From the NCBI GenBank assembly GCA_040758275.1, contig JBFLVV010000011.1, positions 6,648-70,647 on the forward strand: a stretch of 64,000 nucleotides of DNA, in the 5' to 3' direction. This stretch comes from Pseudomonadota bacterium (GTDB lineage: Bacteria; Pseudomonadota; Gammaproteobacteria; Burkholderiales; Burkholderiaceae_D). This document shows, piece after piece, positions 4,857-64,000 of the stretch. How positions within the stretch are numbered: position 1 is the first letter of the stretch; each line of letters begins with the position of its first letter. The notes beneath the pieces are model-generated. The model had not been told where the DNA came from, searched no databases, and saw only the letters and a list, made by a program, of their open reading frames with translations. Both the position numbers and the translations under genes were made by a program.

Positions 4857-5019
4857 CAGATGTTTCCTTAGGTAAATTCTTGCTTGGGCAGCTGATGATC
4901 ATACCAAAAAACATGCACGCCGCATTGGCGGATTGCGGCCATTTTCTTATCTGACGCCCGCAGTGGCGCTAACCCGCCGGACCGCTCTGTGTGGCGCCGG
5001 CCTTGCACGAGGAATGACG

Positions 5020-13286: not shown

Positions 13287-13334
13287 GCGCGAAGCTGCTC
13301 CGGGCATCACAGGCTCTTTAGATATCAAACACCT

Positions 13335-14582
13335 ATGGCTGAAAAAATTTATACTATTCAAGTATTATTCTTGGATGCTGATCGAAATCCGATAAAGGAT
13401 CAGCGTTATCGACTCTATTTTAACGGTGCAATGGTTTCCGCTCAAACCGGGTTGGATGGCTTGTCAAAAAAAATAAGAACAAAATCCTCCGGTGACGAGA
13501 TACAGATAGCTGTCGAGAGATTAGATAAATCAATCAAAGTTGTTGCCCGAGTGTTTTCTGAGGTTGGGAGTAAACTGGTTACATTGATCAGCCCGAAGAT
13601 CAAGATTGCTAGTTCGACCTTACCCCATACCACCGCCTCCGCTGGACAAGTACCCAGCAAGAAAGAATCTGGCCCTCCAATCTACGATCCGCAGAGGCCG
13701 AAAAGCCCGACGGTGAAGAAAGATTTTGGCACAACCGTCGCGGCGCAAAAAAATCAGGCTGGAAATCCTGTCTCGAAGATCGAAGGAGATATACCGAACC
13801 TCGAGTTTTTAGACGAATTTAATGGCGAGGTCATGACTGACGATGATTACCTGTGGGCGTCAAAAAGACTTGGCATTGAATTTGCTGCGATCAAGGCTTT
13901 TGCGATCGTTGAGTCCATGGGTAAGGGCTTTATAACGATTCGAGATAAAACCCTACCTAAAATTCTATACGAGCGCCATAAATTCGCTGCATTTACAAAC
14001 AATGAGTTCAGCAAGCTAAACCCAGACATATCGTCACCTTGTGGCTATTATTATCGGGAGCAACTGTATGTGCCAGCAACCAAAGAGAACAAGAAGCGGA
14101 AGAAGATTCCTGAGGATGTAGATTATTATCGTCCGGTAAACACCAAGGACAACGACGAGACAAAGGCTGAAGCGAGGAAATTCAAGGATCTCGTCAAAAG
14201 TGAGGTACTGGACTACGAGACGCATGCATATTTTGATGGAATAGGTAGCTATAGACGACTGATTAAAGCATACAAACTACATCCGGAAGCAGCGCTTGAA
14301 AGCTGTTCTTGGGGCAGTTTTCAAATTATGGGGGAGTATTGGAAGACAATGGGGTACGCGAGTGTGGCCGAATTTACGAAATCGATGTCTCGCTCACCGA
14401 AGGATCAGGTAAAAGCTTTTGTCTTGTACATTGAGCTTGTAAATCCAAAAATAAGGAAATATTTAAAGGCCTTGGATTGGGAGTCTGCTGCGAGAGCATA
14501 TAATGGACCAAGTTACCGATTGAATAAGTATCACATAAAAATCCGAGAAGCATATGAGAAGTTTAAACGGGAGGAGTCATGA
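13335..14582 (+). CDS. Putative T6SS effector with C-terminal N-acetylmuramidase (DUF3380-like) domain
   Basis: AIKAFAIVES.G.GF...PKILYERHKF, AALESCSWGSFQIMG and WESAARAYNGPSY..NKYH motifs. AT-rich, directly downstream of vgrG, no signal peptide. Confidence 0.8.
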   Translation: MAEKIYTIQVLFLDADRNPIKDQRYRLYFNGAMVSAQTGLDGLSKKIRTKSSGDEIQIAVERLDKSIKVVARVFSEVGSKLVTLISPKIKIASSTLPHTTASAGQVPSKKESGPPIYDPQRPKSPTVKKDFGTTVAAQKNQAGNPVSKIEGDIPNLEFLDEFNGEVMTDDDYLWASKRLGIEFAAIKAFAIVESMGKGFITIRDKTLPKILYERHKFAAFTNNEFSKLNPDISSPCGYYYREQLYVPATKENKKRKKIPEDVDYYRPVNTKDNDETKAEARKFKDLVKSEVLDYETHAYFDGIGSYRRLIKAYKLHPEAALESCSWGSFQIMGEYWKTMGYASVAEFTKSMSRSPKDQVKAFVLYIELVNPKIRKYLKALDWESAARAYNGPSYRLNKYHIKIREAYEKFKREES

Positions 14583-15244
14583 AAAAAAATGCGATGTTAA
14601 TTATCCTGGCCATACTCCAATGCGCAAGTATTTCGCTTCATGCTCACGAGTTGAAGCGTTCGGCTAAGACCGATAGCTGGGAGAATCCGTTCATAGCCTA
14701 CGGATACAATCCGAAGACTAGAATAACAACAGGATATTTAGCGGCGCTAAGGATTTCTCCAGGGAGGACCGATGAGTGCAAGTTAGTATTCGCTGGCGAC
14801 ATCGATAAATCTCATAATTTTTCTGTGAAATATACTGCAGAGACCGGGACTAATGGGAGCCAAGAGCCACCGCGTAGGAGTGTTTCTCTATTCGGGAGGC
14901 AGGATGCTTCAGAGCTTAAGTTCATAAAGAAAGACATGGGGGGGGATTGTGATTGGGTACTCCCATTTGTCGTCGAGTCAGAAGTGCCAGAAAATCCAGA
15001 TGAAGTTATCGTTGCAATGGAAGCTAAAAATGTCGGAGATTGGGTTTCCGTGTATGTAATTAGAGCGAAGAAAGCGCAGTTCTATAGTCAACCGGACAGT
15101 TCAACAGCGAAGAAGGCTTTCCTGGTGAAAGGCGATGTTATTTACGTTTATGAAGAGCAGCCTGAGTGGTATTTTGTTAAGTACGATAACGGGAGGAGAA
15201 AGACGGAAGGGTGGATAAAAAGGTCCGACACATTGCAACCGTAA
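14579..15244 (+). CDS. Putative periplasmic immunity protein with C-terminal SH3b-like domain
   Basis: Sec signal peptide; C-terminal KAQFYSQPD...KAFLVKGDVIYVYEEQPEWYFVKY..GWIK resembles SH3b. ATGA overlap with the effector stop and GAGGAG SD; AT-rich. Confidence 0.65.
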   Translation: MKKNAMLIILAILQCASISLHAHELKRSAKTDSWENPFIAYGYNPKTRITTGYLAALRISPGRTDECKLVFAGDIDKSHNFSVKYTAETGTNGSQEPPRRSVSLFGRQDASELKFIKKDMGGDCDWVLPFVVESEVPENPDEVIVAMEAKNVGDWVSVYVIRAKKAQFYSQPDSSTAKKAFLVKGDVIYVYEEQPEWYFVKYDNGRRKTEGWIKRSDTLQP

Positions 15245-15370
15245 CTTTGTTATGTACTCAGAGTCTTTGCATTACCGGTAAGGCGAGATGCACCAAAATT
15301 TGCGGGCCTTGAAAATTCGATTGTGAGTACAACATGCAGTTTTAACCACATCACGATGAGGAGCACCACC

Positions 15371-16027
15371 ATGAGCCCATCCGATACCCAAAAACTGCAT
15401 GACTTCCTCGGCCAACTCGTCCAGGCCCGCGGCATCCAGAAAGACCCCGAAGCCGATGCCCTGATCCAGCGCGCCGTCGCCCAGCAACCGGACGCCGCCT
15501 ACCTGCTGGTCCAACGCGCACTGCTGATGGAGCAGGCCCTCGACGCCGCCAGGTCGCGCATCGCCATGCTGGAAAGCCAGCTCGACAACCAGCAGCGCAG
15601 CAGCGGCGGCTTCCTCGATCCGAACAGCTGGGGCAACCGCCACCGCTCCCATCCGCCGCAACACCACCAATCCCAACACATGTCCTGGCAGCACGCCTTC
15701 CCCAGCTTCTCCAACCGCAGCGGTGGTGGCTTCCTGCGTGGTGGTGGGGGCGGAGGCTTGCTCGGCTCGATCGCCGCAACCGCCGCCGGGGTCGCGGCGG
15801 GCAGCTTCCTCTTCCACGGCCTCGACAACCTGTTCCACGACCACGATGCCGGCGGCAACGCCAGCCACTTGCTGTCCGATAACGACCAGTCAGGCAGTGC
15901 GCTGGCCGACCAGGCCGGCATCAACGACATCGGCCAGTCCGACAACCTGCTCGACGATGGAGGCGGCCTCGACGGCCCCGGCGGCTTCTTCGACGGCGAC
16001 GGTTCCGACGAGGGCCTGTTCGGCTAA
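15371..16027 (+). CDS. DUF2076 family protein
   Basis: KDPEADALIQRAVAQQPDAAYLLVQRALLMEQAL, Gly-rich GFLRGGGGGGLLGSIAATAAGVAAG and an acidic tail. SD GAGGAG at 15358. Confidence 0.8.
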   Translation: MSPSDTQKLHDFLGQLVQARGIQKDPEADALIQRAVAQQPDAAYLLVQRALLMEQALDAARSRIAMLESQLDNQQRSSGGFLDPNSWGNRHRSHPPQHHQSQHMSWQHAFPSFSNRSGGGFLRGGGGGGLLGSIAATAAGVAAGSFLFHGLDNLFHDHDAGGNASHLLSDNDQSGSALADQAGINDIGQSDNLLDDGGGLDGPGGFFDGDGSDEGLFG

Positions 16028-25220: not shown

Positions 25221-26485
25221 GCATCGATTTCTGCGGCATCAAGAGCCCGAACCCCTTCTGGCTGGCCTCCGCGCCGCCGACCGACAAGGCCTATAACGTC
25301 GTGCGCGCCTTCGAGGCGGGGTGGGGCGGGGCGGTGTGGAAGACCCTGGGCGAAGACCCGCCGGCGGTGAACGTCTCCTCGCGCTACTCGGCCCACTACG
25401 GCAAGAACCGAGAGGTCATCGGTTTCAACAACATCGAGCTGATCACCGACCGCAGCCTCGAGATCAATCTGCGCGAGATCACCCAGGTCAAGAAGGATTG
25501 GCCGGACCGCGCCATGATCGTGTCCCTGATGCTGCCCTGCGAAGAAGCGCCCTGGGCGGCGATCCTTCCGCTGGTCGAGGCCACCGGCGCCGACGGCATC
25601 GAACTGAATTTCGGCTGCCCGCACGGCATGCCCGAGCGCGGCATGGGCGCGGCCGTCGGCCAGGTGCCGGAGTATGTCCAGATGGTGACCAGCTGGTGCA
25701 AGAAGCACACCAAGTTACCTGTCATCGTCAAGCTGACCCCGAACATCACCGACGTGCGCCATCCGGCCCGCGCCGCGCTCGCTGGCGGGGCGGATGCGGT
25801 ATCGCTCATCAACACGGTGAACTCGATCACCCACCTGGACCTGGACCGCATGGTGGCCTACCCCATCGTGGGCGGGGCCAGCACCCACGGCGGCTACTGC
25901 GGCTCGGCGGTCAAACCGATTGCGCTGAACATGGTGGCCGAGATCGCGCGTGATCCGGTGACGGCCCGCCTGCCGATTTCCGGCATCGGCGGCATTGGCA
26001 ACTGGCGCGACGCGGCCGAGTTCATCGCGCTGGGCGCCGGCTGCGTGCAGGTGTGCACGGCCGCCATGCTGCATGGATTCCGCATCGTCGAAGAGATGAA
26101 GGACGGCCTGTCGCGCTGGATGGACACGCAGGGCTACGCCGATATCGCCGCCTTTTCCCGCAAGGCCGTGCGCAATACGACCGACTGGAAGTACCTGGAC
26201 ATGAATTACCAGGTGATTGCCCACATCGACCAGGACAAGTGCATCAAATGCGGCAAGTGCTACGTGGCCTGCGAAGACACCTCGCACCAGGCCATCGCGC
26301 GCGCCGTCGACGAGGCGGGAACCCGGCGCTTCGAGGTGATCCGCGAGGAATGCGTGGGCTGCAACCTGTGCGAGATCACCTGTCCGGTGGAGGCCTGCAT
26401 CACCATGGTGCCGCAGGAGAGCGGCAAGCCCTATATGAACTGGACACAGGACCCGCGCAATCCAAGAGCGGAGGTTGTCGCGTAG
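25208..26485 (+). CDS. preA: Dihydropyrimidine dehydrogenase subunit PreA (PydA)
   Basis: NPFWLASAPP, ELNFGCPHGM, VKLTPN and two C-terminal 4Fe-4S motifs (CIKCGKC, CVGCNLC). Confidence 0.95.
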   Translation: MADLSIDFCGIKSPNPFWLASAPPTDKAYNVVRAFEAGWGGAVWKTLGEDPPAVNVSSRYSAHYGKNREVIGFNNIELITDRSLEINLREITQVKKDWPDRAMIVSLMLPCEEAPWAAILPLVEATGADGIELNFGCPHGMPERGMGAAVGQVPEYVQMVTSWCKKHTKLPVIVKLTPNITDVRHPARAALAGGADAVSLINTVNSITHLDLDRMVAYPIVGGASTHGGYCGSAVKPIALNMVAEIARDPVTARLPISGIGGIGNWRDAAEFIALGAGCVQVCTAAMLHGFRIVEEMKDGLSRWMDTQGYADIAAFSRKAVRNTTDWKYLDMNYQVIAHIDQDKCIKCGKCYVACEDTSHQAIARAVDEAGTRRFEVIREECVGCNLCEITCPVEACITMVPQESGKPYMNWTQDPRNPRAEVVA

Positions 26486-26588
26486 GGTGGGCGGTCCTCC
26501 GCCCACGCGTTCAACTACATGGTGAATTGCGGCGCATCGGCCATTCCCAGGCTGCTTGAACGCGTGGGCGGGGACCGCCCACCCTACG
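26481..26588. repeat. REP doublet (REPIN-like, GTAG family), copy 2
   Basis: CGTAGGGTGGGCGGTCCTCCGCCCACGCGTTCAACT (26481-26516) faces inverted TTGAACGCGTGGGCGGGGACCGCCCACCCTACG (26556-26588). Its GTAG contains the preA stop codon. Confidence 0.85.
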
Positions 26589-38110: not shown

Positions 38111-39349
38111 ATGGACACCCAACTGCAAGCACGCCTGCTGGCCTGGATCGACGCCCACTTCGACGAGGAAGTCGGCTTCCTGCAGCAAGTCATCCGGATC
38201 CCGACCGACACCCCGCCGGGGAACAATGCGCCGCATGCCGAGGCCGTGGCAGGCATGCTGGAGCAGTACGGCTGGACGGCCGAGCGGCATGCCGTGCCCG
38301 CGCAGGCGGTGCGCGACTACGGCATGGAGAGCATCACCAACCTGATCGTGCGGCGCCCCTACGGTGCGGGCGGGCCGACCGTCGCGCTCAATGCCCACGG
38401 CGACGTGGTGCCGCCGGGCGAGGGCTGGACCAGGCCACCCTATGGCGCCGAGATCCATGACGGTGCGATGTATGGCCGCGCCGCCGCCGTCTCGAAGAGC
38501 GATTTCGCCACCTATGTGTTCGCGGTGCGGGCACTCGAAGCCCTCGGCGTGCCGCTCAAGGGCGCGCTCGAGCTGCACTTCACCTATGACGAGGAGTTCG
38601 GCGGCCTGTTAGGCCCGGGCTGGCTGCTGGAACAGAAGCTGACCCGGCCCGACTACGTGATCGCGGCCGGCTTCAGCTACAACATCGTCACCGCCCACAA
38701 CGCCTGCCTGCAGCTGGAGATCACGGTGCACGGCAAGGCCGGGCACGGCGCCATGCCCGAGACGGCGGTCGACGCGCTGCAGGCCGCGACCCGCATCCTG
38801 AACGCCATCTACGGCCAGCTTCCGGAGCTGAAGAAGATCAAGTCCAGGGTCCCGGGCATCGATTCCCCCACCATGCTGGTCGGGCGCATCGATGGCGGCA
38901 CCAATACCAATGTGGTGCCGGGCAAGGTGGTCATGAAGATGGACCGCCGCATGATTCCCGAGGAAGATCCGGTGGCGGTGGAAGCGCAGGTGCGCAGGCT
39001 GATCGAGGAGGCGGTGGCCGGCATGCCCGGCATCCGCCTCGAGATCCGGCGCCTGCTGCTCTCGCATGCGCTGCGGCCCCTGCCAGGTTCGGAACGCCTG
39101 GTGGAGAGCCTGCAGCGCCACGGCCGCGCAGTCCTCGGGGAGGAGATCCCGGCCCAGGGCACGCCGCTGTATGCGGATGCGCGCCTCTATGGCGAGCACG
39201 GCATCCCGGCGGTACTGTATGGCGCCGGCCCGCGCACGGTGCTCGAGGCGAACGCCAAGAAGGCCGACGAGCGCCTGGAGCTCGAGGACCTGCGCAAGGC
39301 CACCAAGGTGGTGGCCTTAACGCTGCTCGACTTCCTCGCCATCGCCTGA
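38111..39349 (+). CDS. M20 (ArgE/DapE-like) family protein with non-canonical metal site
   Basis: NAHGDVVP, YGRAAAVSKSD, YDEEFGG, GKAGHGA..P, GGTNTNVVPG and YGAGP...AKKADE give the M20 fold. Coupled to the puuD stop. Confidence 0.85.
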   Translation: MDTQLQARLLAWIDAHFDEEVGFLQQVIRIPTDTPPGNNAPHAEAVAGMLEQYGWTAERHAVPAQAVRDYGMESITNLIVRRPYGAGGPTVALNAHGDVVPPGEGWTRPPYGAEIHDGAMYGRAAAVSKSDFATYVFAVRALEALGVPLKGALELHFTYDEEFGGLLGPGWLLEQKLTRPDYVIAAGFSYNIVTAHNACLQLEITVHGKAGHGAMPETAVDALQAATRILNAIYGQLPELKKIKSRVPGIDSPTMLVGRIDGGTNTNVVPGKVVMKMDRRMIPEEDPVAVEAQVRRLIEEAVAGMPGIRLEIRRLLLSHALRPLPGSERLVESLQRHGRAVLGEEIPAQGTPLYADARLYGEHGIPAVLYGAGPRTVLEANAKKADERLELEDLRKATKVVALTLLDFLAIA

Positions 39350-41545
39350 TGGCGTGCGCGGGACGATGGCGAACTGCGGCCCGAGACCGTAGTCGGGCTT
39401 GACGCTGCGCGCCATGAACTGACGCCAGGCTTTCCGGCCAGGCTCGCCGAGCGCGTCCACCGCGTAGGCAAGGGCGGGCTGCATGTTGGAAGGGTAGCCG
39501 GCCTCGCTGTCCGAATAGCCGGTCATCTGGCCGGGCTTCACCTTGAGCGCGGCGGCCATCTGCGGACTGTCGCAGGGCAGGCCGAGCGTCTCTTCCGGCA
39601 TGCTGGCGCGGAAGGCCTGTCCAATGCTGGTGTAATAGGGGGCGGATGCGTTATCGCGCACCATCATGGAGTACATGGCGCCGTTCAGCCAGCAGGCGCC
39701 ATTGCCGGTCATGCGCTGCACCGGGAAGTCCGCCTTCCAGCGCAGCAGTTCGCGCGCCTTGTCGAAGCCCAGCTCGGCGACATGGCCGATGGCTGCAGTG
39801 AAAAAATCGTCCTGCCAGGGGGCGAGGCCGCGCTTGTCCTTGTAGACGACGGCGTAGCCGTTCACGATCACGCCCAGAGCATTCGCGTTCCGGTTGTGCG
39901 TATAGTTGCTGTTGTACCAGTCCAGGTTATGGTCGAGGATCTGCAGGAAGTGGCGCTTGAGCGGATGCTCGTCGGGCGTGATGTAGGCCGCCTCTCCCAG
40001 CGTGCGCATGCTCCAGGCCTGGCCGCGCACCTGCTCTGGCTTGAGCAGGCCCTTGCCGTGTTCACGGTAATCCGGATTCGATGCAAACACGTTATACATG
40101 GCCCAGAACTGCAGTTCTTCGAGGTAGAAGTGCTCACCCGTGAGCAGGTAGGGCAGATAGGCAAAGGCCGGCTGGTGGGATATGTCGTGCTTGTTCGGCG
40201 TAACGCAGGCGCTTTTCTGCGCGCATTCCGGGAACTTCTCTCGCTTGCCGGTCGCGGGATTGAACGACTCGGCGGCGCCGATGGCCGTCATGTAGGGGTA
40301 GTCGAGCAGGCTCACCGGCAGGCCGGTGCGGCGGTCGCGGTAGTGCATCGACCAGCTGCCCGCCAGGTCGGCGGTGCCCAGGGTCATCTCGCGGGCGCGC
40401 GGGTCCATGCCAAGCAGGTACATCGCGGCCCATGCCGGCAGCAGGCCGATGTCGGCCCGGCCGCCCGTGGTCGGCATGGCGCGCATGGCCATGCCGACGC
40501 CCATGGGCTCGGTCCTGTCGCCGGTCCACGATGCGTACATCCGCGCCAGCCGCTTCTCGTCGATATGCACCGACTGGTCGTAGTTCGGCAGGGCCTTCGA
40601 CGCGATCAGCTGGCGCGTGTCGTGGCGTACATGCACGGCAGGCACGCCGCCCCACCAGAACTGCTTGCGCCAGCGTGCATGGTGGTAGTGGTTCAACTGC
40701 TCGCGCTTGTAGACCTCGTCCTTCCCGACAGTGATGCGGGCGTCGTAGACGAAGTTCTGCGGGCCCGGCTCCCAGGTCCAGTTGTTCTCCACGGTGACGT
40801 CGACGCGGGCCCGGCCGGCCTGCGGATACCAGCGCAGGGCGAAGCGCGCGGCCAGGTGCGGATGGGCGCGGCCCTCGGCGTCGAGCAGGGGCGTGGACAC
40901 CAGCCATTCGCGCACGAGCGGGCCGTCGAGCCAGAGGGCTGGCTTGTTCTCCAGCAGCGGACGCAGGGTGGCGGCCCAGGTCTTGCCCTTGAAACGCGCC
41001 TCGACCCTGGCGTCCAGCTCCTTGGGGGGCAGCGCGCTGCCCGGCGTCGCGCCCTTGGAGGCGCCGGTCACCAGCCCGATCACGATGGGACGCGAGCCCG
41101 CCAGGCGTTCGAGCACCAGCGACACGACCGCATGCCGCACCGAGCCGTCGGGATGGTGGGCCTTGATGTCGGTTTGCACCGGCAGGGTGCCGCCGTCGGC
41201 AAGCTTCGCCTGCAGCTGCTGGCCGGGCTTGAACTCGCCGACGCCGAAGACCTGTCCGAAGGTGACCGGGACATCGGCCTGGTCGCGCTTGCCGCTGTTC
41301 TCGAAGGAGAGCGTGGCCAGCGCGCCGGGGATCGCAGCTGGGGGCGTGGGTGCGGGGCGTCCGGGCGTGCGGGGCTTATCCGCTTTTGCGGTCGGCCCCG
41401 TCCCGTAACGCAGTTCGATCACGCGCCCGGCATCGAGCCCGCCGCCGGCCGGCAAGCCCTTGGGGGTGTCGGGCAGGAACTGGGCGTGGGCCTCGCACAG
41501 GAGGGCAGTGGACAGGAAGAAGAGAATCAGGCGGGAGATCAGCAT
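39317..41545 (-). CDS. Secreted 742-aa protein of unknown function (possible RIFT-barrel plus alpha/alpha-barrel, lyase-like)
   Basis: Signal peptide ending AHA-Q, Pro-rich linker, VPVTFGQVF and HPDGSVRHAVVS, and aromatic-rich helical C-terminus. GC3-rich codon usage like neighbours. Confidence 0.75.
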   Translation of the reverse strand: MLISRLILFFLSTALLCEAHAQFLPDTPKGLPAGGGLDAGRVIELRYGTGPTAKADKPRTPGRPAPTPPAAIPGALATLSFENSGKRDQADVPVTFGQVFGVGEFKPGQQLQAKLADGGTLPVQTDIKAHHPDGSVRHAVVSLVLERLAGSRPIVIGLVTGASKGATPGSALPPKELDARVEARFKGKTWAATLRPLLENKPALWLDGPLVREWLVSTPLLDAEGRAHPHLAARFALRWYPQAGRARVDVTVENNWTWEPGPQNFVYDARITVGKDEVYKREQLNHYHHARWRKQFWWGGVPAVHVRHDTRQLIASKALPNYDQSVHIDEKRLARMYASWTGDRTEPMGVGMAMRAMPTTGGRADIGLLPAWAAMYLLGMDPRAREMTLGTADLAGSWSMHYRDRRTGLPVSLLDYPYMTAIGAAESFNPATGKREKFPECAQKSACVTPNKHDISHQPAFAYLPYLLTGEHFYLEELQFWAMYNVFASNPDYREHGKGLLKPEQVRGQAWSMRTLGEAAYITPDEHPLKRHFLQILDHNLDWYNSNYTHNRNANALGVIVNGYAVVYKDKRGLAPWQDDFFTAAIGHVAELGFDKARELLRWKADFPVQRMTGNGACWLNGAMYSMMVRDNASAPYYTSIGQAFRASMPEETLGLPCDSPQMAAALKVKPGQMTGYSDSEAGYPSNMQPALAYAVDALGEPGRKAWRQFMARSVKPDYGLGPQFAIVPRTPSGDGEEVEQR

Positions 41546-41566
41546 GGGGAAGAAAACCGTCCAATG

Positions 41567-41590
41567 AAAAAGGGCGCCCTGGGGCGCCCT
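41567..41590 (-). terminator. Rho-independent terminator after the S9 peptidase
   Basis: AGGGCGCC-CTGG-GGCGCCCT stem followed by a T-run on the minus strand (A-run 41567-41571 on plus). Confidence 0.7.
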
Positions 41591-41613
41591 GGATGTTACA
41601 CCTTATCTCCGAA

Positions 41614-54738: not shown

Positions 54739-55066
54739 TGCGTCGTAAATGACCTCCTCATGACGCGTCCCCATCTTCCCTCTGTAAACACAGGAAACTG
54801 TGGCAAAACCGCAACAAACATGTTTAGGAAAACGGGGCTAAACTGCGCAGCTTTTTTGAAACTCAGTTGAGTTCCTCAAACCAACTTTGTATAACTGCCA
54901 CAACCGAAGTGCCATACCCAGAGACGCAGAGCCACCAGCATCACCGTTTAGTAAATGATGCCAAACGCACCTGCTGGCGCCGGTCCAAGTGTGCCGCGAG
55001 CCGGGAGTGTCCCCCGGTTGCGACAGATAAAGAGCCCATCCACAGGGCACAATAAGGAGATGTGAA

Positions 55067-58000
55067 ATGATGTTCAGCAAAGTTCTTGCATCGCGCCATG
55101 CCGTGCGTCCAAGCGCCACCCCCATCGCCACCGCGGTTGCGATGGCGGTCTTGAGCATGAGCGCCCAGGCCCAGACCACCACCGATGCACCGGCGGCCGG
55201 ACAAGCCGAGCCGGGCAAGGCGACCACCGTGGTCGTGACCGGCTACCGCTACGCGATCGAGAAGAGCCTCGACCAGAAGCGCGACGCGAACGCGATCGTC
55301 GAGGTCGTCACCGCCGAAGACGTCGGCAAATTCCCGGACAAGAACGTCGCGGACGCGCTTCAGCGCGTGCCGGGCGTGGTCGTCACCCGCAGCGGCGGCG
55401 AAGGCAAGAACGTCAGCGTGCGCGGCCTGTCGTCGGAACTGACGCTGACCCAGCTGAACGGCAACTACATCGCTACCGCCGAATCGAACGGCGATCCGAC
55501 CCGTTCCTTCAACTACACCCTGATGCCCTCGAACATGCTGGGCAGCGCCGAGCTGTACAAGACGCCGGAAGCGCGCCTCGACGAAGGCGGCATCGGCGGC
55601 ACCGTCATCCTGCGCACCCGCCGTCCGCTGGACGTCGAGTCGGGCAGCGGCTTCGTGAACATGGAAGGCACCTGGGCCGACACCACCAAGAAGACCGATC
55701 CCCAGATCTCCGGCCAGTACGCCTGGCACGACAAGAGCAACCGTTTCGGCGTGCTGGTCGGCTTCACCCAGCAGAAGCGCACCGTGCGCACCATGAGCGC
55801 GACCACCGAGAACTGGCAGTGGTATGGCGACGACTACGATGGCCACCCGGCGACCGACGTCAACGGCAAGCCTTCGGACCTGAATTCCTACTGGTGGGGC
55901 GAGTCGGGCTTCAATGACCAGAACGGCAAGTACTACACCAACTTCATGATGCCGACCTCGGTCAACTTCAACGTCCGCGAAGAAGAGCGCGAGCGCAAGG
56001 GCGGCCAGGTGACCCTGCAGTTCAAGCCGCTGCGCAACCTGAACATGACGGCGAACTACTTCCGCTTCGACCTGAAGCAGAATTCGCAGACCAACACCCT
56101 GAAGGTTCCGGAATGGAACATCGCGCGCTACGCCGGCGACGGCAACTGGCCGGGCGGCCGCCTGCTCGACGGCCTCACCTTCGATCCGAGCGGCACCATC
56201 GTCACCGGCGCCGACTACAGCATCCATCCGGGCAAGGCCTACTACTGCAGCGAAGCCCAGGCGGCCGCTGCCGGCCAGAAGCCGGGCGGTTGGGGTCCTG
56301 ACGACTGCACCGTGCCGACCCCGCAGATCACCGGCAGCTACAACCGCGAGAAATCGCTGTCGCAAGCCTTCGACCTCGAAGTCGAATGGAAGGGCGAGTC
56401 CATCGACGCCACCTTCAAGGGCGGCCGTACCTGGGCCAAGGGCGGCCCGGAACTGCAGTTCTCGGCGCCGATGAAGCCGCGCATGCAGAACGCCGACGGC
56501 AGCTGGTCGCTGGGTAACACCGCCACCTCCTGGAGCCTGGCGGGCACCCCGAGCATGACCTTCTCGCCGCAGCTGATGGCCAACCTGCGCAACGGCATCG
56601 CCGAGATCGACCTCGGTTCGACCGCCTCTTCCTGGACCAAGAACAGCACCGAACAGAACTACGCCCAGGCCGACTTCACCTGGCACACCGACAGCAGCTG
56701 GCTCGATTCGGTGCAGTTCGGCGCCAAGTACCGCGATGGCGGCATCAGCCGCAGCACCGGCAACAACTACTGGACCTGCAAGGGCCTGACCGGCTACGAC
56801 AACCGCTACCAGAACGGCTGCGACAACAACGCCAACAAGTTCCGTCCGGAATTCATGTACAGCGAGTCGCTGCCGAACATCGTCGGCGCCATCAATGCCA
56901 GCGCTTTCCCGGGCATTAACTTCCCGGCCTACATCAGCTACCTGAACAGCACCTATGGTGCGATGCAGACCCGTAACGAAGACAACTTCGTGTACAACGT
57001 CGACGAGAAGATCTCGGCCCTGTACTTCCAGGCCAACATCAAGACCGAGCGCCTGCGCGGTAACGTCGGCCTGCGCTACGTCCGCACCAAGCAGCATGCG
57101 GATTCGACGGACCAGGTCGATTACTACAACGACTACTTCTTCAACGGTCCTGACGGCAAACCGGCGCCTTGCCTCGCGGGCGGCGCACCGGCTGCCGGCG
57201 CACCGAGCGGCTCGGGTTGCATCAGCGGCTTCACCGTCCTGCCGGACAGCAACACCAACCCGGCAACCCGCCACATCTCGACCTTCGAGATCAGCGCGCT
57301 GGACCGCACCTACAACGACCTGCTGCCGAGCTTTAACCTGGCATACGACCTGAGCGACACCCTGCTGCTGCGCGCCGCCGCATCGAAGGTGATCGCACGT
57401 CCGAGCTATGGCGACATCGGCTCGCCGGGCAGCCTGCGCTACTTCAGCCAGGAATACGTCAACGACCGCCGCCTGATCGGTGGCGGCGACCAGCAGGGCT
57501 GGTATGGTTCGGGCAGCAACAAGAGCCTGGAACCGTACCAGGCCGACCAGTATGACCTGGGCCTGGAGTGGTACTTCCAGCGCGGCTCGGTGCTGGGTGG
57601 CGGCCTGTTCCGCAAGAACGTGAAGAACTTCTCGGTGCCCGTGGTCCGTGACATCCAGCTGAGCATCGCCGGCCAGAACGTGACCGTGCAGAACTACAGC
57701 ACCAGCGCCGGCGGCCGTGACGCGGTGTCGCAGGGTGTCGAGCTGTACACCCAGCACACCTTCAACAACGGCATCGGCTTCCAGCTGAACTACACGTACA
57801 ACGACACCAACCAGGCCGCCATCACCCTGGAAGACGGCACCGAGATCGGCAAGTCGCCGCTGGTCGGCAGCGCCAAGAACCAGACCAACCTGACCGTGTT
57901 CTACTCGAACGACAAGATGCTGCTGCGCGCTTCGTACAACCGCCGCGGCGAGGTCGTGAACGGACTGGTCAACGGCCTGAACGTGTATGAAGAGCCGTAC

Positions 58001-58180
58001 AGCCAGATCGACCTGAACGCGGCCTACAACTTCACCAAGCAGCTCAGCCTGACCGCCTCGGTGCTGAACCTGACGAAGGAAGAGACCCGCGCCTATCTGG
58101 GCAACGACACCAAGAACCGCTTCTACTCGAACGGTTACACCGGACGTGTCGCTTACGTGGGCCTGAACTACAAGTTCTAA
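55067..58180 (+). CDS. TonB-dependent receptor (carbohydrate-locus type)
   Basis: Signal peptide, TonB box TVVVTG, AEDVGKFPDKNVADALQRVPGV, GEGKNVSVRGL, LDEGGIGGTV and terminal YVGLNYKF. SD AAGGAG. Confidence 0.96.
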   Translation: MMFSKVLASRHAVRPSATPIATAVAMAVLSMSAQAQTTTDAPAAGQAEPGKATTVVVTGYRYAIEKSLDQKRDANAIVEVVTAEDVGKFPDKNVADALQRVPGVVVTRSGGEGKNVSVRGLSSELTLTQLNGNYIATAESNGDPTRSFNYTLMPSNMLGSAELYKTPEARLDEGGIGGTVILRTRRPLDVESGSGFVNMEGTWADTTKKTDPQISGQYAWHDKSNRFGVLVGFTQQKRTVRTMSATTENWQWYGDDYDGHPATDVNGKPSDLNSYWWGESGFNDQNGKYYTNFMMPTSVNFNVREEERERKGGQVTLQFKPLRNLNMTANYFRFDLKQNSQTNTLKVPEWNIARYAGDGNWPGGRLLDGLTFDPSGTIVTGADYSIHPGKAYYCSEAQAAAAGQKPGGWGPDDCTVPTPQITGSYNREKSLSQAFDLEVEWKGESIDATFKGGRTWAKGGPELQFSAPMKPRMQNADGSWSLGNTATSWSLAGTPSMTFSPQLMANLRNGIAEIDLGSTASSWTKNSTEQNYAQADFTWHTDSSWLDSVQFGAKYRDGGISRSTGNNYWTCKGLTGYDNRYQNGCDNNANKFRPEFMYSESLPNIVGAINASAFPGINFPAYISYLNSTYGAMQTRNEDNFVYNVDEKISALYFQANIKTERLRGNVGLRYVRTKQHADSTDQVDYYNDYFFNGPDGKPAPCLAGGAPAAGAPSGSGCISGFTVLPDSNTNPATRHISTFEISALDRTYNDLLPSFNLAYDLSDTLLLRAAASKVIARPSYGDIGSPGSLRYFSQEYVNDRRLIGGGDQQGWYGSGSNKSLEPYQADQYDLGLEWYFQRGSVLGGGLFRKNVKNFSVPVVRDIQLSIAGQNVTVQNYSTSAGGRDAVSQGVELYTQHTFNNGIGFQLNYTYNDTNQAAITLEDGTEIGKSPLVGSAKNQTNLTVFYSNDKMLLRASYNRRGEVVNGLVNGLNVYEEPYSQIDLNAAYNFTKQLSLTASVLNLTKEETRAYLGNDTKNRFYSNGYTGRVAYVGLNYKF

Positions 58181-58193
58181 GCGTTTCCGTTTC

Positions 58194-58255
58194 CTCCCCG
58201 GTGCATCCTGCCGGGGAGTCTTTTTCCCAGGCTTTGCCGGTTGTTCCGGCAAGGC
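58194..58255 (+). terminator. Terminator-like hairpin plus a second hairpin between the receptor and the halogenase gene
   Basis: CTCCCCGG/CCGGGGAG followed by TCTTTTT; GCTTTGCCGG/CCGGCAAGGC. Confidence 0.6.
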
Positions 58256-58275
58256 CGTCTTCGTTTGGGACATTC

Positions 58276-59796
58276 ATGGAAAAGCAGGACCGCATCCGTT
58301 CGATCACGGTCGTCGGTGGCGGCAGCGCGGGCTGGATGGCCGCAGCATGCCTCGTCACCTATCTCGGGAAGGGCGCCACCGTCCGTTTGGTCGAGTCCGA
58401 GGAAATCGGCATCGTCGGCGTGGGGGAGGCGAGTGTCCCCCATATCCGCATGTTCAACAGCCAGTGGCTGGGCATCGACGAAGCGGATTTCGTCAAGCGC
58501 ACCCACGCTACCGTCAAGCTGGGCATCGAGTTCAATGACTGGGCCAGGCTCGGCGACAGCTACCTGCACGGCTTCGGCACCATCGGCCGCGCCGTCGGGC
58601 CGCTGCCTTTCCACCAGTTCTGGCTCAAGCTGCACAAGCAGGGACGCGCGGCGCCGATCGGCGCCTATTCGGCGCAGACGGTGATGGCGCCGCAAGGCCG
58701 GTTCGCGCCGGGCGACCGGAACGCGCCTCCGGGCTCGCCCCTGGCCGATATCGCCTATGCATACCACTTCGACGCGACCCTGTATGCGCGCTTCCTGCGC
58801 GAGCTGGCGGAGCAGCGCGGTGTGCAGCGCATCGAAGGCAAGATCGTCAAGGTCAACCAGCGCGCGGACAACGGTTTCATCGAGTCGCTGGTGCTGGAAA
58901 ATGGCCAGCTCGTCGAGGGCGAACTGTTCATCGACTGCTCGGGCTTCCGCGGACTGCTCATCGAAGACACCCTGAAAACTGGCTACGTCGACTGGTCGCA
59001 TTGGCTGCCTTGCGACCGTGCGATGGCCGTGCCCAGCGAGAAGGTCGATCCGATCACGCCGTACACGAAGTCGACCGCGCGCGAGGCCGGCTGGCAGTGG
59101 CGCATTCCGCTGCAGCACCGCACCGGCAACGGCTACGTCTACTCGAGCAAGTACATCAGCGACGATGAGGCAGCAAGCACGCTGCTCGCGAACCTGGACG
59201 GCAAGGCCCTGGCCGATCCGCGCCCGCTGCGTTTCACCACCGGCATGCGCAATAAATTCTGGAACAAGAACGTCGTGGCGCTGGGCCTGGCCAGCGGCTT
59301 CCTGGAGCCGCTCGAGTCGACCAGCATTTATCTCGCGCAGTCGGGCATCACGCGTTTATTGAGCCTGTTCCCGACGCGCGACATGAGCCCCTTGCTCATC
59401 GACCGCTACAACCGCGAATCGGCCTTCGAGTACGAGCGCGTGCGTGACTTCCTGATCCTGCACTACCACGCCACCGAGCGCAACGACACGCCGTTCTGGG
59501 ACTACTGCCGCACCATGCCGGTGCCGGACAGCCTGCGCGAAGCGATGGACCTGTTCCGCTACGACGGACGCTACTTCCGCAACGGCGAGGATTTCTTCGC
59601 GCTGCCAAGCTGGGTCCAGGTGATGCTGGGCCAGCGCATCGTTCCGCAGAACTACCACCCGATCGTCGACGAGATGCCGGAAGAGAAGCTCGTCGAACAC
59701 GTCGAAGGCATCCGCACGCTCATTTCGCGTGCCGTGTCCACCATGCCGACCCACCAGGAGTGGGTCGACCGTTACTGGAAAGCGAACACACTGTGA
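58276..59796 (+). CDS. Tryptophan-halogenase-family flavin-dependent enzyme
   Basis: [24 protein letters not shown] (catalytic Lys position), [14 protein letters not shown] and GFLEPLEST. Confidence 0.92.
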
Positions 59797-62441
59797 GCCA
59801 TCGTCCATTGCTGGGTCCTTTCGCGCGCCTGCTGCTGGGCGCCGTGCTGGCCATCGCCACCGCCTCGGCCATGGCGGCTTCGCCAGGCCAGATCCTCATC
59901 GACAAGGGCTGGACCTTCCGCCTGCTGCCGGGCAGCGCCCAGGCGGACGCCCATCTGGAAGCGGCGCCATGGCGTGCGGCGACCGTGCCGGGCACCGTGC
60001 ACACCGACCTGTTCGCACACAAGGTCATCGCCGACCCCTATGTCGGCGCCCCCGAGGCCGGCCTGCAGTGGATCGGCCTGGCGGACTGGGAATACCAGAC
60101 GCGCTTCGATGCGCCGCGTGATGTGCTGGGACGGGCACGCAGTGACCTCGTATTCAAGGGCCTCGATACCTATGCCGAGGTCTGGCTCAATGGCGAGCAG
60201 CTCCTGAAGGCCGACAACGCCCACCGTACCTGGCGCCTGCCGGTCCAGGGTAAGCTGCGCGCAAAGGGCAACGAGCTGCGCATCGTGTTCCGCTCGCCGA
60301 TCGCGACCCTGCTCCCGCAGGTGCAGGCGATGCCGAACAAGATCGCCGGTAACTATCCTTCCCCGTATGGCGACGAGCCGAAAGACGCGATGACCGGCAA
60401 TTTCGCACGCAAGCCGGCCTACCATTACGGCTGGGACTGGGGGCCGCGTTACGTGACCGCCGGCATCAGCAAGCCCGTCGTGCTGCAAAGCTGGGATACG
60501 GTCCGCATCGAGGACCTGCAGCTGCGCCAGGACCACGTGGATGCCGCGCGCGCCGAAGTCGCCGCGATCGCCACCCTGGATGCGGTGCGCGATGGCGCGG
60601 CCACGCTGCGCCTGTGGCAGACGGCGCCGGGCGGCAAGCGTAACCTGGCGGCGCAGCAGGAAGTGCGCTTGCGTGCGGGCGCCAACCGCATCGAGCTGCC
60701 GGTCCGGATCGATCAGCCGCAGCGCTGGTTCCCGACCGGCTATGGCGCCCAGCCGCTGTACCGCTACGAGCTGGAAGTGGGCGAGGGCAAGGCGACCGTG
60801 GCCAAGCTGGCCGCGCGCACCGGCCTGCGCAGCGTGGTGCTGCGCCGCGACCCGGACGAGAAGGGCAAGAGCTTCTACTTCCTCGTCAACGGCATCCCGG
60901 TCTTCGCCAAGGGCGCGAATACCATCCCCTTCGACATGTTCCAGCCGCGTGTGACGAGGGCGCAGCTGCGCCGGGTGCTGGAGTCGGCGCGCGATGCGAA
61001 CATGAACATGCTGCGCAGCTGGGGCGGCGGCTATTACGAGAACGACGATTTCTTCGAGCTGGCCGACGAGCTGGGCCTGATGGTCTGGCAGGACTTCATG
61101 TTCGGCGGCGGCATGCAGCCGGCCTACGACGACGCCTTCCGCGGCAGCGTGGTGGCGGAGGCGCGCGACCAGGTGCGGCGCCTGCGCAACCATCCGAGCG
61201 TCGTCCTCTGGTGCGGCAACAACGAGGAAGAGATCGCGTGGAAGTACTGGGGACACGGCAAGGACCTGAAGAAGGCCGATCCCGCTTTCGCGGACAAGGT
61301 CTGGAAGGGCTATGTGCAGCTCTTCGGCGGCGATTTGCGCCAGGTGGTGGCGGAAGAAGGCGGCGGCATCGGCTACTGGTCCAGTTCCCCCGGTGACGAC
61401 CTGGCGGAAGTGGCCAACACCCCGGCCAGCGGCGACATGCACTACTGGGAAGTCTGGGGCAACCCGGCGCATCCGGTCACGAAATACCTGGAGATCACGC
61501 CGCGCTTCATGTCCGAGTTCGGCCTGCAGGCCTGGCCGGTGCAGCGTACGGTCGACGCTTTCGCGAAGCGCGCGGAGCAGGGCGTGGCCACGCCGGTGAT
61601 CGAGGCGCACCAGAAGTTCCTGGCGGGTAAAGGCAACGAACGCCTGATGAAGTATGTGAAGGACGAATTCGGCGAACCGACGGATTTCGGCCGCTTCATC
61701 TACCTGAGCCAGGTGATGCAGGCCGAGGGCATCGAGCTGGCGGCCCTGCACCACCGCGCCAGCCGTCCCTTCACCATGGGTTCCCTGTACTGGCAGCTGA
61801 ACGACGTGTGGCCGGGGGCCTCCTGGTCGAGCATCGACTGGTTCGGCCGCTGGAAGGCGCTGCAGTTCCATGCGCGCCGCTTCTTTGCACCGGTGGCGGT
61901 GTCCGCGCTGCGTAACGCAGCCGGCAAGACGCAGGTACACCTGCTGAACGACCGCACCCAGGCCGTGCGCGGCGAACTGCGCCTGCGCGTGATGACGCTC
62001 GACGGTGCCATCTTGCGCGACGAGCGCAAGCCGGTCGAGATGGCGCCGCTGTCGGCATCGAGGGTCGCGGACTACGTGGACGCCGACCTGCTCGGCCGGG
62101 CCGACCCGGCATCCACCGTGGCGGTCTTCGAGCTGCGCGCGGAAGGCGAACCGGCTTCGCGCCGCGTGGTGTACTTCAAGGCGGCCAAGGACATGGCATG
62201 GCCAGAGCCCGGCCTGCAGGCGCAATGGCGCAGCAAAGGCGGCGCCTATGTGCTCGAGCTGCAGGCGGCGACCCTGGTGCGGGGCCTGTGGATCGATGCG
62301 GGCGAGGCCGAGGTGTCGGACAATGCCCTGACCCTGCTGCCAGGGGAACGCGTCAGCCTGCGTGTGTCGTCGAAGGCCGGCCTGGCTGCTCTGCGCAAGG
62401 GCTTGCGCCTGCAAACCATGACAAAAGACATCGCCTATTAA
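59793..62441 (+). CDS. Secreted GH2 beta-mannosidase
   Basis: Signal peptide, [41 protein letters not shown] (acid/base), FMSEFG (nucleophile) and YWQLND.W. GTGA overlap with the halogenase stop. Confidence 0.9.
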
Positions 62442-62496
62442 CAAAAGTTTGTTTACTAAAAATGAGCTAAAAAAGCCGCGCTTTACGCAACTGCGG

Positions 62497-62526
62497 TTGA
62501 CGCTGCCAAAACGCCGCTGATATAAA
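62497..62526 (+). promoter_or_regulatory. Sigma70-like promoter of the LacI gene
   Basis: TTGACG-N18-TATAAA. Confidence 0.55.
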
Positions 62527-62622
62527 AACTGACTATGAAAAGGAGTGGCGCGAAGGCGCCCTCCGACAGCAGGAAGACGCGCTACAAAACGCGTTTAATA
62601 AAACAAAGACTGGAGACTTTTC

Positions 62623-62670
62623 ATGCACGTCATTTCGCTGCATGGCCGGCGCCTGGAGCTGCGGCCATGA
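62623..62670 (+). CDS. Candidate 15-aa leader ORF MHVISLHGRRLELRP coupled to LacI
   Basis: TGGAGA SD 6 nt upstream of ATG 62623; TGA 62668-62670 overlaps the LacI ATG (ATGA). Confidence 0.4.
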   Translation: MHVISLHGRRLELRP

Positions 62671-63653
62671 GCCAGGTAACCCTGCGCGACATCGCGGAAA
62701 CCACCGGCCTGTCGATCGGCACGGTCTCGCGCGCGCTGAAGAACCAGGCCGGCATGACCGAAGTCACCCGCGACAAGGTGCGCGAGGCGGCCCTGCGCCT
62801 GGGCTATGACTTCTCGCAGCTGAAAAAGGGACGCATCCGCCGCATCGCCTTCCTGCTCCACAGCCAGCACAACACCCTGGCCTCCAGCCCCTTCTTCTCG
62901 CCCGTCCTGCACGGCGCCGAGGAGGCCTGCCGCCGCGAAGGCGTGGCCCTGTCCTTCATCGCGGTCGGTCCTGCCGAACCGGTGCTGGGCCAGATCCGCC
63001 TGCACCAGCCCGACGCCATTATCTGCGCCGGCTTCTTCGAACCCGAAGTGCTGGCCGCCCTGCAGCAGGTCGGCAAACCCATGGTGCTGGTCGACATGCA
63101 CCGGCGCGGCTTCACCTCGGTCAATCCGGACAATCTGCGCGGCGGCTATCTCGCCACCCAGCACCTGCTGCGCACCGGCCGCAAGCGCATCGCCATGCTC
63201 TCCGGCTCGCTGGCCCACTACAGCATCCAGCAGCGCAACCGGGGCTTCCGCCAGGCCCTGTTCGACGCCAAGGTCCACGCCGACCCCGACCTCGAAGTCA
63301 TCGTGCCCTCGATGGGCGAGGGCGACGAGGCCGTGGCCGAAGCCATGCGCAGCCTGCTCAGCCTTCCGAAGCGCGCCGACGCGGTGTTCTGCTACAACGA
63401 CAGCACGGCGCTGGCCGCCATGAAGTTCTGCCTGAACGAAGGCCTGAAGGTCCCCTACGACATCGCGATCGTCGGCTTCGACGACATCGCCGCGGCGGCT
63501 GCCGCGATTCCCCCATTGAGCACGGTACGCGTCGACAAGGAAGCGCTGGGCCGGGCCGGGGTCGAGCTCTTGCTCCACAAGCCAGACGAACAGCCATCCC
63601 AGATTACCGTGCCGGTCGAGATGATCGTGCGCGAGAGCAGTTACGACGATTAG
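62667..63653 (+). CDS. LacI family transcriptional regulator
   Basis: VTLRDIAETTGLSIGTVSRAL HTH, DNLRGGYLATQHL, AVFCYND, VGFDDI and LSTVRVD. Confidence 0.94.
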   Translation: MSQVTLRDIAETTGLSIGTVSRALKNQAGMTEVTRDKVREAALRLGYDFSQLKKGRIRRIAFLLHSQHNTLASSPFFSPVLHGAEEACRREGVALSFIAVGPAEPVLGQIRLHQPDAIICAGFFEPEVLAALQQVGKPMVLVDMHRRGFTSVNPDNLRGGYLATQHLLRTGRKRIAMLSGSLAHYSIQQRNRGFRQALFDAKVHADPDLEVIVPSMGEGDEAVAEAMRSLLSLPKRADAVFCYNDSTALAAMKFCLNEGLKVPYDIAIVGFDDIAAAAAAIPPLSTVRVDKEALGRAGVELLLHKPDEQPSQITVPVEMIVRESSYDD

Positions 63654-63678
63654 TCCCCACCCGCCCTTACACGACAAT

Positions 63679-64000
63679 ATGACCACTCTCCCGAACTTCC
63701 GCAGCCCGGACGTCCTGCTCGACCACGCGCGCCACACGATGCGCTTCTACCATCCGCGCGCGATCGACCCCCAAGGGGGCATGTTCCACTACTTCAAGGA
63801 CGACGGCGCGGTCTATGACGCCAGCCACCGCCACCTGGTGAGCAGCACGCGCTTCGTGTTCACCTATGCGATGGCCTACCGCCACTTCCAGGACCCGGCC
63901 TACCTCGAGGGCCTGAAGCACGCGGTGCGTTTCGTGCGCGAGGCCCATCGCGCCTCGGACGGTGACGGCTATGCCTGGATGCTCGACGGGGGCAAGATCG
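63679..64000 (+). CDS. AGE family epimerase/isomerase (mannose isomerase-like), 3'-truncated by the window end
   Basis: Hand translation gives MTTLPNFRSPDVLLDHARHTMRFYHPRAIDPQGGMFHYFKDDGAVYDASHRHLVSSTRFVFTYAMA, the typical YihS/AGE N-terminus. Confidence 0.85.
   Translation, partial: MTTLPNFRSPDVLLDHARHTMRFYHPRAIDPQGGMFHYFKDDGAVYDASHRHLVSSTRFVFTYAMAYRHFQDPAYLEGLKHAVRFVREAHRASDGDGYAWMLDGGKI

Follow-up and report, generated by a model that had tools for sequence, protein, structure and literature searches.

A flavin-dependent halogenase gene paired with a TonB-dependent receptor gene in a putative mannoside-utilization locus

We analyzed a 64-kb stretch of DNA from a Massilia-like soil betaproteobacterium (the window), which was scanned with Pfam and NCBIfam profiles, and focused on positions 55067-62441, where a TonB-dependent receptor gene is followed by a gene for a flavin-dependent halogenase (FDH) and by a GH2 beta-mannosidase gene that starts within the halogenase stop codon. 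Comparison with related loci indicates that the evolutionarily conserved unit is the receptor together with the halogenase, and that the glycoside hydrolases around this unit are interchangeable. On balance, and with moderate confidence, we regard the gene product as a genuine cytoplasmic two-component FDH of the BrvH/Xcc4156 type, encoded in a receptor-headed, LacI-controlled mannoside operon, acting on an aromatic substrate, co-expressed with the receptor and linked to it in evolution.

The receptor-halogenase pair across Proteobacteria

A scan of one genome per species yielded 80 loci in Alpha-, Beta- and Gammaproteobacteria, whose halogenases are 50-81% identical to that of the window. Genes were called by a GC3-aware routine and neighbors were labeled with HMMER and Pfam; a single receptor hidden Markov model overlooked a second receptor class, and Pfam added 10 receptors. 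The gene directly upstream of the halogenase, or of a tandem array of halogenases, encodes a TonB-dependent receptor in 47 of the 66 scorable loci (co-directional in 42), compared with 11 receptors among 707 other genes of the same loci. By Fisher test, this upstream receptor excess corresponds to an odds ratio of 157 (p ~6e-49), and the odds ratio is still 18 under a conservative count that takes every unlabeled gene of at least 700 aa for a missed receptor. Two receptor architectures pair with the halogenase clade, one composed of Plug and barrel, the other of CarboxypepD_reg and OMP_b-brl_4.

The first downstream position, scanned in 76 cases, is occupied by GH13 (8), PF10091 (4), GH3 (4), GH2 (2) and GH30 (2), by GH67, GH97, GH43, GH32 and GH92 (one each), and also by Cupin_8, DUF6445, MFS and solute-binding proteins; the second downstream position holds GH13, GH97, GH30, GH1, GH39, GH43, GH92 and MFS. 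The downstream glycoside hydrolases span at least 14 families, and a single halogenase clade (46-80% identity) is found next to GH13, GH3, GH2, GH30, GH67, GH97, GH43, GH32, GH92, GH1 and GH39. Orthologues from Duganella and Rugamonas (79-81% identity) have kept the receptor, but not the GH2 gene. Of the 47 co-directional downstream genes, 13 have a possible start codon that overlaps the halogenase stop codon by 4 bp or 1 bp, and 25 start within 30 nt.

Xcc4156 and BrvH have no orthologue among the 80 loci, and the context of Xcc4156 was examined separately. Around its 99% identical counterpart P0271, the order is receptor, SapC, Cupin_8, halogenase and TonB, while relatives in Pseudoxanthomonas and Dyella show receptor, halogenase, SapC, Cupin_8 and halogenase. 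No hydrolase is adjacent in the Xcc4156-type loci L084, L085 and L086, the nearest being a GH39 gene ~8 kb off in L084, and a dedicated TonB gene is present in one of the three. These receptor/SapC/Cupin_8 loci represent a second form of the receptor-halogenase module. Since the hydrolase family varies and the Xcc4156-type loci have no hydrolase, the constant partner of the halogenase is the receptor and not a glycosidase or a particular sugar; with the receptor as the invariant partner, there is less reason to link the enzyme's role to one glycan or to a released aglycone.

A first-pass annotation of the window had described such halogenases as integral parts of carbohydrate operons. This description stands in that the gene is conserved, is tightly linked to the gene behind it and occurs in carbohydrate loci of three proteobacterial classes; the ratio of nonsynonymous to synonymous substitution rates (dN/dS) against two orthologues is 0.14-0.16, equal to that of the GH2 gene, and the halogenase gene is thus under purifying selection. 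It has to be amended with respect to the conserved partner, which is the receptor rather than the glycosidase.

Tandem arrays of two to five halogenases occur in 14 of the 78 loci with a called halogenase gene. In the array loci L030, L040, L043, L056, L078 and L079, a single receptor is followed by up to five halogenase paralogues, and the second array position is often taken by a very divergent copy (24-32% identity). In addition, three stretches of the 984-aa database protein P0121 match the query, the best being residues 482-980, and this protein looks like a fusion of two halogenases.

The halogenase and its locus in the window

The order of elements given by the first-pass annotation, with a receptor gene, two hairpins, a halogenase-like gene, a GH2 gene starting in a GTGA overlap, a LacI gene and an AGE gene, was recovered at every position, and another receptor-halogenase pair lies at the start of the window:

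55067-58180, plus strand: TonB-dependent receptor of the oligosaccharide type (NCBIfam TIGR01782), carrying a signal peptide and the Plug and barrel domains (Pfam PF07715, PF00593)
58194-58218, plus strand: hairpin 1, CTCCCCGG...CCGGGGAG then TCTTTTT, terminator-like
58230-58256, plus strand: hairpin 2, GGCTTTGCCGG...CCGGCAAGGCC, terminator-like
58276-59796, plus strand: FDH, 506 aa, without signal peptide (PF04820, PDB matches, motifs)
59793-62441, plus strand: periplasmic GH2 beta-mannosidase, GTG start overlapping the halogenase stop codon (match to 6BYC/6BYE)
62667-63653, plus strand: LacI-family regulator (reading frame open from 62535; 328-aa orthologues fit the start at 62667)
63679-64000, plus strand: AGE-superfamily (GlcNAc_2-epim) protein, N-terminal part, the gene being cut by the window end
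1-2400, plus strand: first receptor, TIGR01782 type, 5' end cut by the window start
2545-4095, plus strand: first halogenase paralogue, 35% identical to the second (58276-59796)

The halogenase open reading frame (ORF) extends from 58201 to 59796 with a likely ATG at 58276, which puts GGGSAGW at residues 14-20. It matches PF04820 with 652 bits (cut-off 21) over profile positions 2-458 of 458, and has nearly full-length matches in the PDB to 9LUQ (544 bits), 6Y1W (529 bits) and 6FRL (469 bits). All of the motifs that the first-pass annotation had reported as retained are indeed present. The GxGxxG motif binding flavin adenine dinucleotide (FAD) is G14-G15-G16-S17-A18-G19-W20 and is kept in at least 112 of 116 relatives, WxWxIP is W273-Q-W275-R-I277-P278, and K81 aligns with the catalytic K79 of PrnA. 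E347 lies within GFLEPLES, aligned to CFLEPLES of PrnA, whose catalytic glutamate is E346, and His98 and Phe100 align with H101 and F103 of PrnA, which in that enzyme stack on the substrate ring. A census of 116 halogenases (114 from related loci and the two window copies) showed the catalytic Lys in 110 and the Glu in 109. In the clade, which covers three proteobacterial classes, conservation reaches 95% or more at 104 positions, among them H98, F100 and some in the C-terminal module.

The alignment to PrnA covers residues 7-428 and ends there; beyond this point PrnA has 110 further residues and the window halogenase 78, which agrees with the short C-terminal lid noted in the first pass. This shorter module aligns instead with those of BrvH, Xcc4156 and 9LUQ, and the full-length identity to Xcc4156 and 9LUQ is 50-51%. 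BrvH and three Xanthomonas enzymes have been classified as 'group C', which is without the tryptophan-binding motif 'Trp4' (PMC8269204), and the ASVPHI and HGFGT sequences of the window halogenase (ATxPxI and HxFG) match the Xcc-b100-4345 motifs given in that study (ATVPHI, HGFGT). By similarity and motifs, the protein therefore belongs with the group C 'indole-type' halogenases (BrvH, Xcc1333/4156/4345), whereas the C-terminal tryptophan-binding module that marks the free-tryptophan halogenases of the PrnA/RebH/PyrH type is missing. Halogenation of indole derivatives in vitro has been reported for relatives (PMC7336383, PMC8269204), and Xcc4156 and BrvH are active on such compounds. The family is large, with 2,559 clusters (50% identity) reaching E<=1e-30. 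Massilia, Duganella, Pseudoduganella and Janthinobacterium supply the close orthologues (82-99% identity), which places the source among the Oxalobacteraceae as a Massilia-like bacterium. The label 'tryptophan 7-halogenase', which databases give to such proteins, is not supported. The clade is routinely misnamed in this way, and genome mining counts its members as natural-product enzymes; the real context, a TonB-dependent receptor and mostly carbohydrate loci, changes the reading of PF04820 hits. The protein has no signal peptide and is therefore cytoplasmic.

The receptor scores 737 bits against TIGR01782 'TonB-Xanth-Caul' (cut-off 310), compared with 64 bits against the siderophore subfamily TIGR01783. 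At the other end of the halogenase gene, the GTG start of the GH2 gene at 59793 overlaps the halogenase TGA at 59794-59796 by 4 bp ('ctGTGAgcc'). This start yields a typical 28-residue signal peptide, so that the GH2 protein would be periplasmic, and the protein matches the beta-mannosidase structures 6BYC/6BYE with 913 bits and 2JE8 with 559 bits. In the three orthologous loci, L081 (metagenome), L083 (Massilia sp. G4R7) and L087 (Massilia sp. WF1), the 4-bp overlap is conserved and the order is receptor, halogenase, GH2, LacI, AGE, PfkB kinase, GH92, MFS and GH31. Because the orthologous Massilia loci continue with PfkB, GH92, MFS and GH31, the locus is most readily understood as a LacI-controlled locus for alpha- and beta-mannosides. 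The block in L087 has a different left flank and therefore behaves as a unit.

The spacer between the receptor and halogenase genes (58181-58275, 95 nt) contains the two hairpins and has a fold z-score of -4.66. Hairpin 1, which follows the receptor gene, looks like an intrinsic terminator or attenuator; the orthologous loci L001-L003 have a hairpin at the same position with a different sequence. The stem base of hairpin 2, TTGCC...GGCAA, is kept in six of seven orthologous spacers (GGCGA in L003), with a loop of varying length. Hairpin 2 was also considered as a LacI-type protein-binding site and rejected, as the arm spacing differs among orthologues. Between hairpin 2 and the halogenase ATG there is no space for a promoter. 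In the predicted fold of 58178-58290, base pairing covers the AUG of the halogenase as well as its putative ribosome-binding site (GGGA), and the partners of the AUG region are the bases just past the receptor stop codon; such a fold would hold halogenase translation low, or tie it to ribosomes completing the receptor gene. Neither the spacer nor the 5' leader matched an Rfam family. Farther upstream, in the long leader/promoter region 5' of the receptor gene, an imperfect palindrome TTTTTGAAACTCA-GT-TGAGTTCCTCAAA at 54853-54880 is a candidate operator for the LacI regulator of the locus.

To place this spacer among others, we folded 39 receptor-to-halogenase spacers, of which 37 came from co-directional pairs in the related loci with a gap of 20-400 nt and two from the window. 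Their median length is 109 nt, and z is below -2 in 35 of the 39. Spacers of this kind are thus structured in general, which fits a receptor expressed above the genes behind it.

None of the sequencing runs contains the window itself (word share at most 0.42). Soil metatranscriptome contigs that are ~95% identical to the window span 58046-58421 and 59586-60118, that is, both gene junctions, although as assembled contigs from libraries with uncertain labels they are weak evidence. Run X9, which is labeled as RNA-Seq of a soil metagenome, has one contig of 12,673 nt that is collinear with 54925-64000 at ~96% identity; this is long for a transcript, and the contig may therefore represent DNA carry-over or a mislabeled library. 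Raw 2026 RNA-seq and Ribo-seq reads were mapped to the related Caulobacter locus L058, which comprises a LacI gene, the receptor-halogenase pair and two additional co-directional genes. RNA-seq coverage was low and unbroken over the receptor, the halogenase and the next gene, and plus-strand ribosome footprints amounted to 0-1.0 per base in the halogenase ORF versus 0.2-3.8 in the receptor ORF. The Caulobacter homologue is thus transcribed and translated, below the level of its receptor.

Function of the halogenase in receptor-headed loci

In the explanation that we favor, the halogenase would be transcribed from the receptor promoter within a LacI-controlled mannoside-utilization operon that runs from the receptor through attenuating hairpins to the halogenase, the translationally coupled periplasmic beta-mannosidase, LacI and AGE. 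FADH2 supplied by an unlinked flavin reductase would react with O2 and halide to form hypohalous acid. Lys81, with Glu347, would steer this acid to an electron-rich aromatic ring, and the conserved His98/Phe100 pair would hold the ring. With receptor and halogenase as the conserved unit, the substrate is most likely something common to TonB-dependent uptake modules, for instance a small aromatic or indolic compound, and not a glycan or an aglycone. Several points weigh against this explanation. Each receptor locus has its own divergent halogenase paralogue (35% identity in the window), which one would not expect of enzymes sharing one substrate across all modules. The evidence for co-transcription is indirect, coming from assembled contigs, unstranded reads and a related species, and profile scans found no flavin reductase gene in the 64-kb window. 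The reported in vitro activities of relatives are weak and favor bromide, of which soil and fresh water contain little. Moreover, no native substrate or halogenated product has been reported for any member of the clade (PMC7336383).

The first-pass annotation had proposed that these enzymes act on aglycones released by the neighboring glycosidase; here the cytoplasmic halogenase would modify an aromatic aglycone, or another product, freed from a natural glycoside that the receptor had imported. The translational coupling of halogenase and GH2 in the window and its close orthologues speaks for such a role, as do the 13 of 47 co-directional downstream genes that can overlap the halogenase stop codon and the many glycoside hydrolases among the overlapping or downstream genes. 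The two enzymes would, however, reside in different compartments, the GH2 protein with its signal peptide in the periplasm and the halogenase without one in the cytoplasm. The hydrolase family also changes freely within one clade and includes GH13 of starch-type loci, which offer no aglycone, the Duganella and Rugamonas orthologues retain the receptor without GH2, and the Xcc4156-type modules have no hydrolase at all. An aglycone is accordingly unlikely as a general explanation. The other proposal of the first pass, a non-halogenating oxidoreductase, belongs to a broader possibility in which halogenase function was lost and the protein either catalyzes another reaction, as a flavin monooxygenase or oxidoreductase, or assists the uptake system without catalysis, for example as a sensor or chaperone. 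Such a loss would be in keeping with the missing native substrate or product for the clade (PMC7336383), with the ~5% of family members in these loci that have no Lys or Glu, and with the absence of a linked flavin reductase. Against it, K81, E347 and WxWxIP are intact here and in ~95% of relatives. The WxWxIP motif is held to block monooxygenation. Together with the reported halogenation of indole derivatives by relatives in vitro (PMC7336383, PMC8269204), this makes a loss of function improbable in our estimation.

A target among proteins or peptides deserves mention because the receptor is the only invariant neighbor: the halogenase might modify Trp or Tyr of the co-encoded receptor before its export, or of another envelope protein or peptide, with JmjC/Cupin_8 and 2-oxoglutarate (2OG) oxygenases adding hydroxylations in other loci. 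Each receptor having its own divergent paralogue, the arrays of two to five halogenases behind single receptors, and a C-terminal module without the free-tryptophan lid are compatible with this, and FDH1 weakly matches QhpG. The associated Cupin_8/JmjC enzymes come from a peptide-modifying superfamily (PMC2938197), and the halogenase superfamily includes enzymes acting on peptidyl-Trp, such as MibH (cited in PMC8269204). Yet the same clade pairs with two different receptor architectures. To our knowledge, no halogenated outer-membrane protein has ever been reported, and we give a protein or peptide target only a small chance. About as doubtful is a wider proposal in which receptor-linked halogenases form a general, so far overlooked accessory layer of TonB-dependent nutrient uptake in Proteobacteria, each paralogue halogenating its own receptor or partner peptide, or the aromatic co-cargo of the receptor, and not a product of the glycan pathway, with JmjC/2OG enzymes and SapC modifying further elsewhere. 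If this were true, halogenation would be part of outer-membrane transport biology and not of natural-product synthesis.

Iyer et al. (2010) described neighborhoods of a TonB-class receptor, one to three tryptophan-halogenase homologues, SapC and JmjC in Alpha- and Gammaproteobacteria and predicted a halogenated siderophore-like product (PMC2938197), so that the module would make a halogenated metabolite from an amino-acid derivative and then re-import it. The module around Xcc4156 and its relatives is of this type, once with its own TonB gene. For the window, we consider a siderophore-like product quite unlikely: the receptor is of the sugar type (737 bits on TIGR01782 vs 64 bits on TIGR01783), the genes around it are LacI and mannoside catabolic genes with no nonribosomal peptide synthetase (NRPS), polyketide synthase (PKS) or other scaffold-forming enzyme, and SapC and JmjC are absent. 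Least probable of all is a fortuitous or merely inherited adjacency, with the halogenase as a passenger functionally unconnected with either the receptor or the sugar locus. Although 19 of the 66 scorable loci have no receptor immediately upstream, the odds ratio of 157 (18 in the most conservative count) across three classes and different receptor types comes close to refuting it, and the purifying selection on the halogenase gene and the conserved overlap with the next gene also argue against it.

Among known systems, the closest are Xcc4156 (6Y1W), Xcc-b100-4345 and Xcc-b100-1333 from Xanthomonas campestris, BrvH (6FRL) from Brevundimonas, and 9LUQ, with which the window halogenase shares the Pfam family, group C, the ATxPxI and HxFG motifs and a C-terminal module without the tryptophan-binding motif; unlike the Xcc and BrvH enzymes, it is known from its sequence alone. 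It also shares with Xcc4156 a receptor-headed operon, but it lies between the receptor and GH2 in a mannoside locus, whereas Xcc4156 follows SapC and Cupin_8 and precedes TonB, with no hydrolase. PrnA, RebH, PyrH and Thal have in common with it the FAD-binding fold, the catalytic Lys and Glu and WxWxIP (~290 bits over residues 7-428), and differ in the C-terminal substrate module, which is different and shorter here, in the free-tryptophan motif, which is missing, and in the natural-product cluster, which the window does not have. Indeed, no scaffold-forming enzyme (NRPS, PKS, precursor of a ribosomally synthesized and post-translationally modified peptide, or similar) was found by Pfam in the window and the orthologous loci, so that the locus does not qualify as a secondary-metabolite cluster.

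The carbohydrate utilization loci containing TonB-dependent receptors (CUT loci) of Xanthomonas and Caulobacter (Blanvillain et al. 2007, PMC1790865) resemble the present locus in combining a TIGR01782 receptor, a carbohydrate-active enzyme and LacI, and the receptor, GH2 beta-mannosidase and LacI genes here indeed stand in one locus. As for an inner-membrane transporter, the window stops inside the AGE gene, and an MFS gene lies three genes further in L081, L083 and L087. The definition of CUT loci, in contrast, does not include a halogenase, halogenases are nowhere mentioned in that paper, and the host here is a betaproteobacterium. The neighborhood of Iyer et al. (PMC2938197) is likewise comparable in that a TonB-class receptor is followed by at least one halogenase homologue with an intact Rossmann fold and catalytic lysine. 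It is unlike the window, in which profile scans found neither SapC nor JmjC/Cupin_8 and in which a sugar-type receptor accompanies glycan catabolism instead of siderophore-like biosynthesis.

The receptor-halogenase neighborhood as such is therefore not new. In the searchable open literature (full text), only Iyer et al. (2010) describe the receptor link; no paper connects these halogenases with polysaccharide utilization or carbohydrate loci, the terms 'halogenase' and 'PUL' never appear together, and nothing is available on PDB 9LUQ, 9LU2 and 9LTB. The pairing is thus on record, with little said about its connection to carbohydrate loci, and the gene adds one member to an established enzyme group, within a genomic context that was described before but is still unexplained. 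The papers on the Caulobacter mal and suc loci reportedly list such a halogenase gene without assigning it a role. All of this raises the question of what a halogenase does in outer-membrane nutrient uptake. With the window, this can be tested cleanly twice in the same genome, in a locus of the N-acetylglucosamine (GlcNAc) type and in one of the mannoside type, each with a defined inducer class. Both loci are without SapC and JmjC, and are therefore among the simplest versions of the module for study.

The first receptor-halogenase pair and the remainder of the window

Both TonB-dependent receptors in the window have a halogenase gene directly downstream, as the first-pass annotation had remarked for its two sugar loci, and profile scans of the 64 kb found no third receptor and no third halogenase. 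The two halogenases are as divergent as had been claimed (35% identity). The locus of the first pair contains two GntR/UTRA regulators, a NagZ-like GH3 and a NagP-type MFS, and is therefore of the GlcNAc/chitooligosaccharide type. A 355-aa ORF between its GntR and GH3 genes (4933-6000, plus strand) has no Pfam or NCBIfam match.

Within the spacer of this first pair, at 2413-2512, lies a nested palindrome of ~100 nt. It is not confined to this locus: the window has it again, with conserved arms, at 26481-26588, between genes for a permease and for a dihydropyrimidine dehydrogenase-like protein. The arm sequences are CGTAGGGTGGGC..GCCCACGCGTTCAACTA ... TTGAACGCGTGGGCGG..CCGCCCACCCTACG, and the fold has -95.9 kcal/mol (z = -9.4); both copies look like a repeated extragenic palindrome resembling repetitive extragenic palindromic (REP) sequences or miniature inverted-repeat transposable elements (MITEs).

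Elsewhere in the window lie genes for nitrate assimilation, for the catabolism of pyrimidines and purines, for two-component systems and for VgrG. The only match of a 761-aa ORF at 39317-41602 (minus strand), which adjoins an S9 peptidase gene, is weak and falls on the N-terminal barrel of PcRGLX-like proteins. The G+C content of the window is 62-71%, except for an island at ~12-16 kb with 52-54%. The drop (12000-16000) comes directly after, and partly inside, the 3' end of the VgrG gene (10308-13286), and the low-G+C stretch, which includes a DUF2076 gene at 15245-16027, may be a type VI effector/immunity island.

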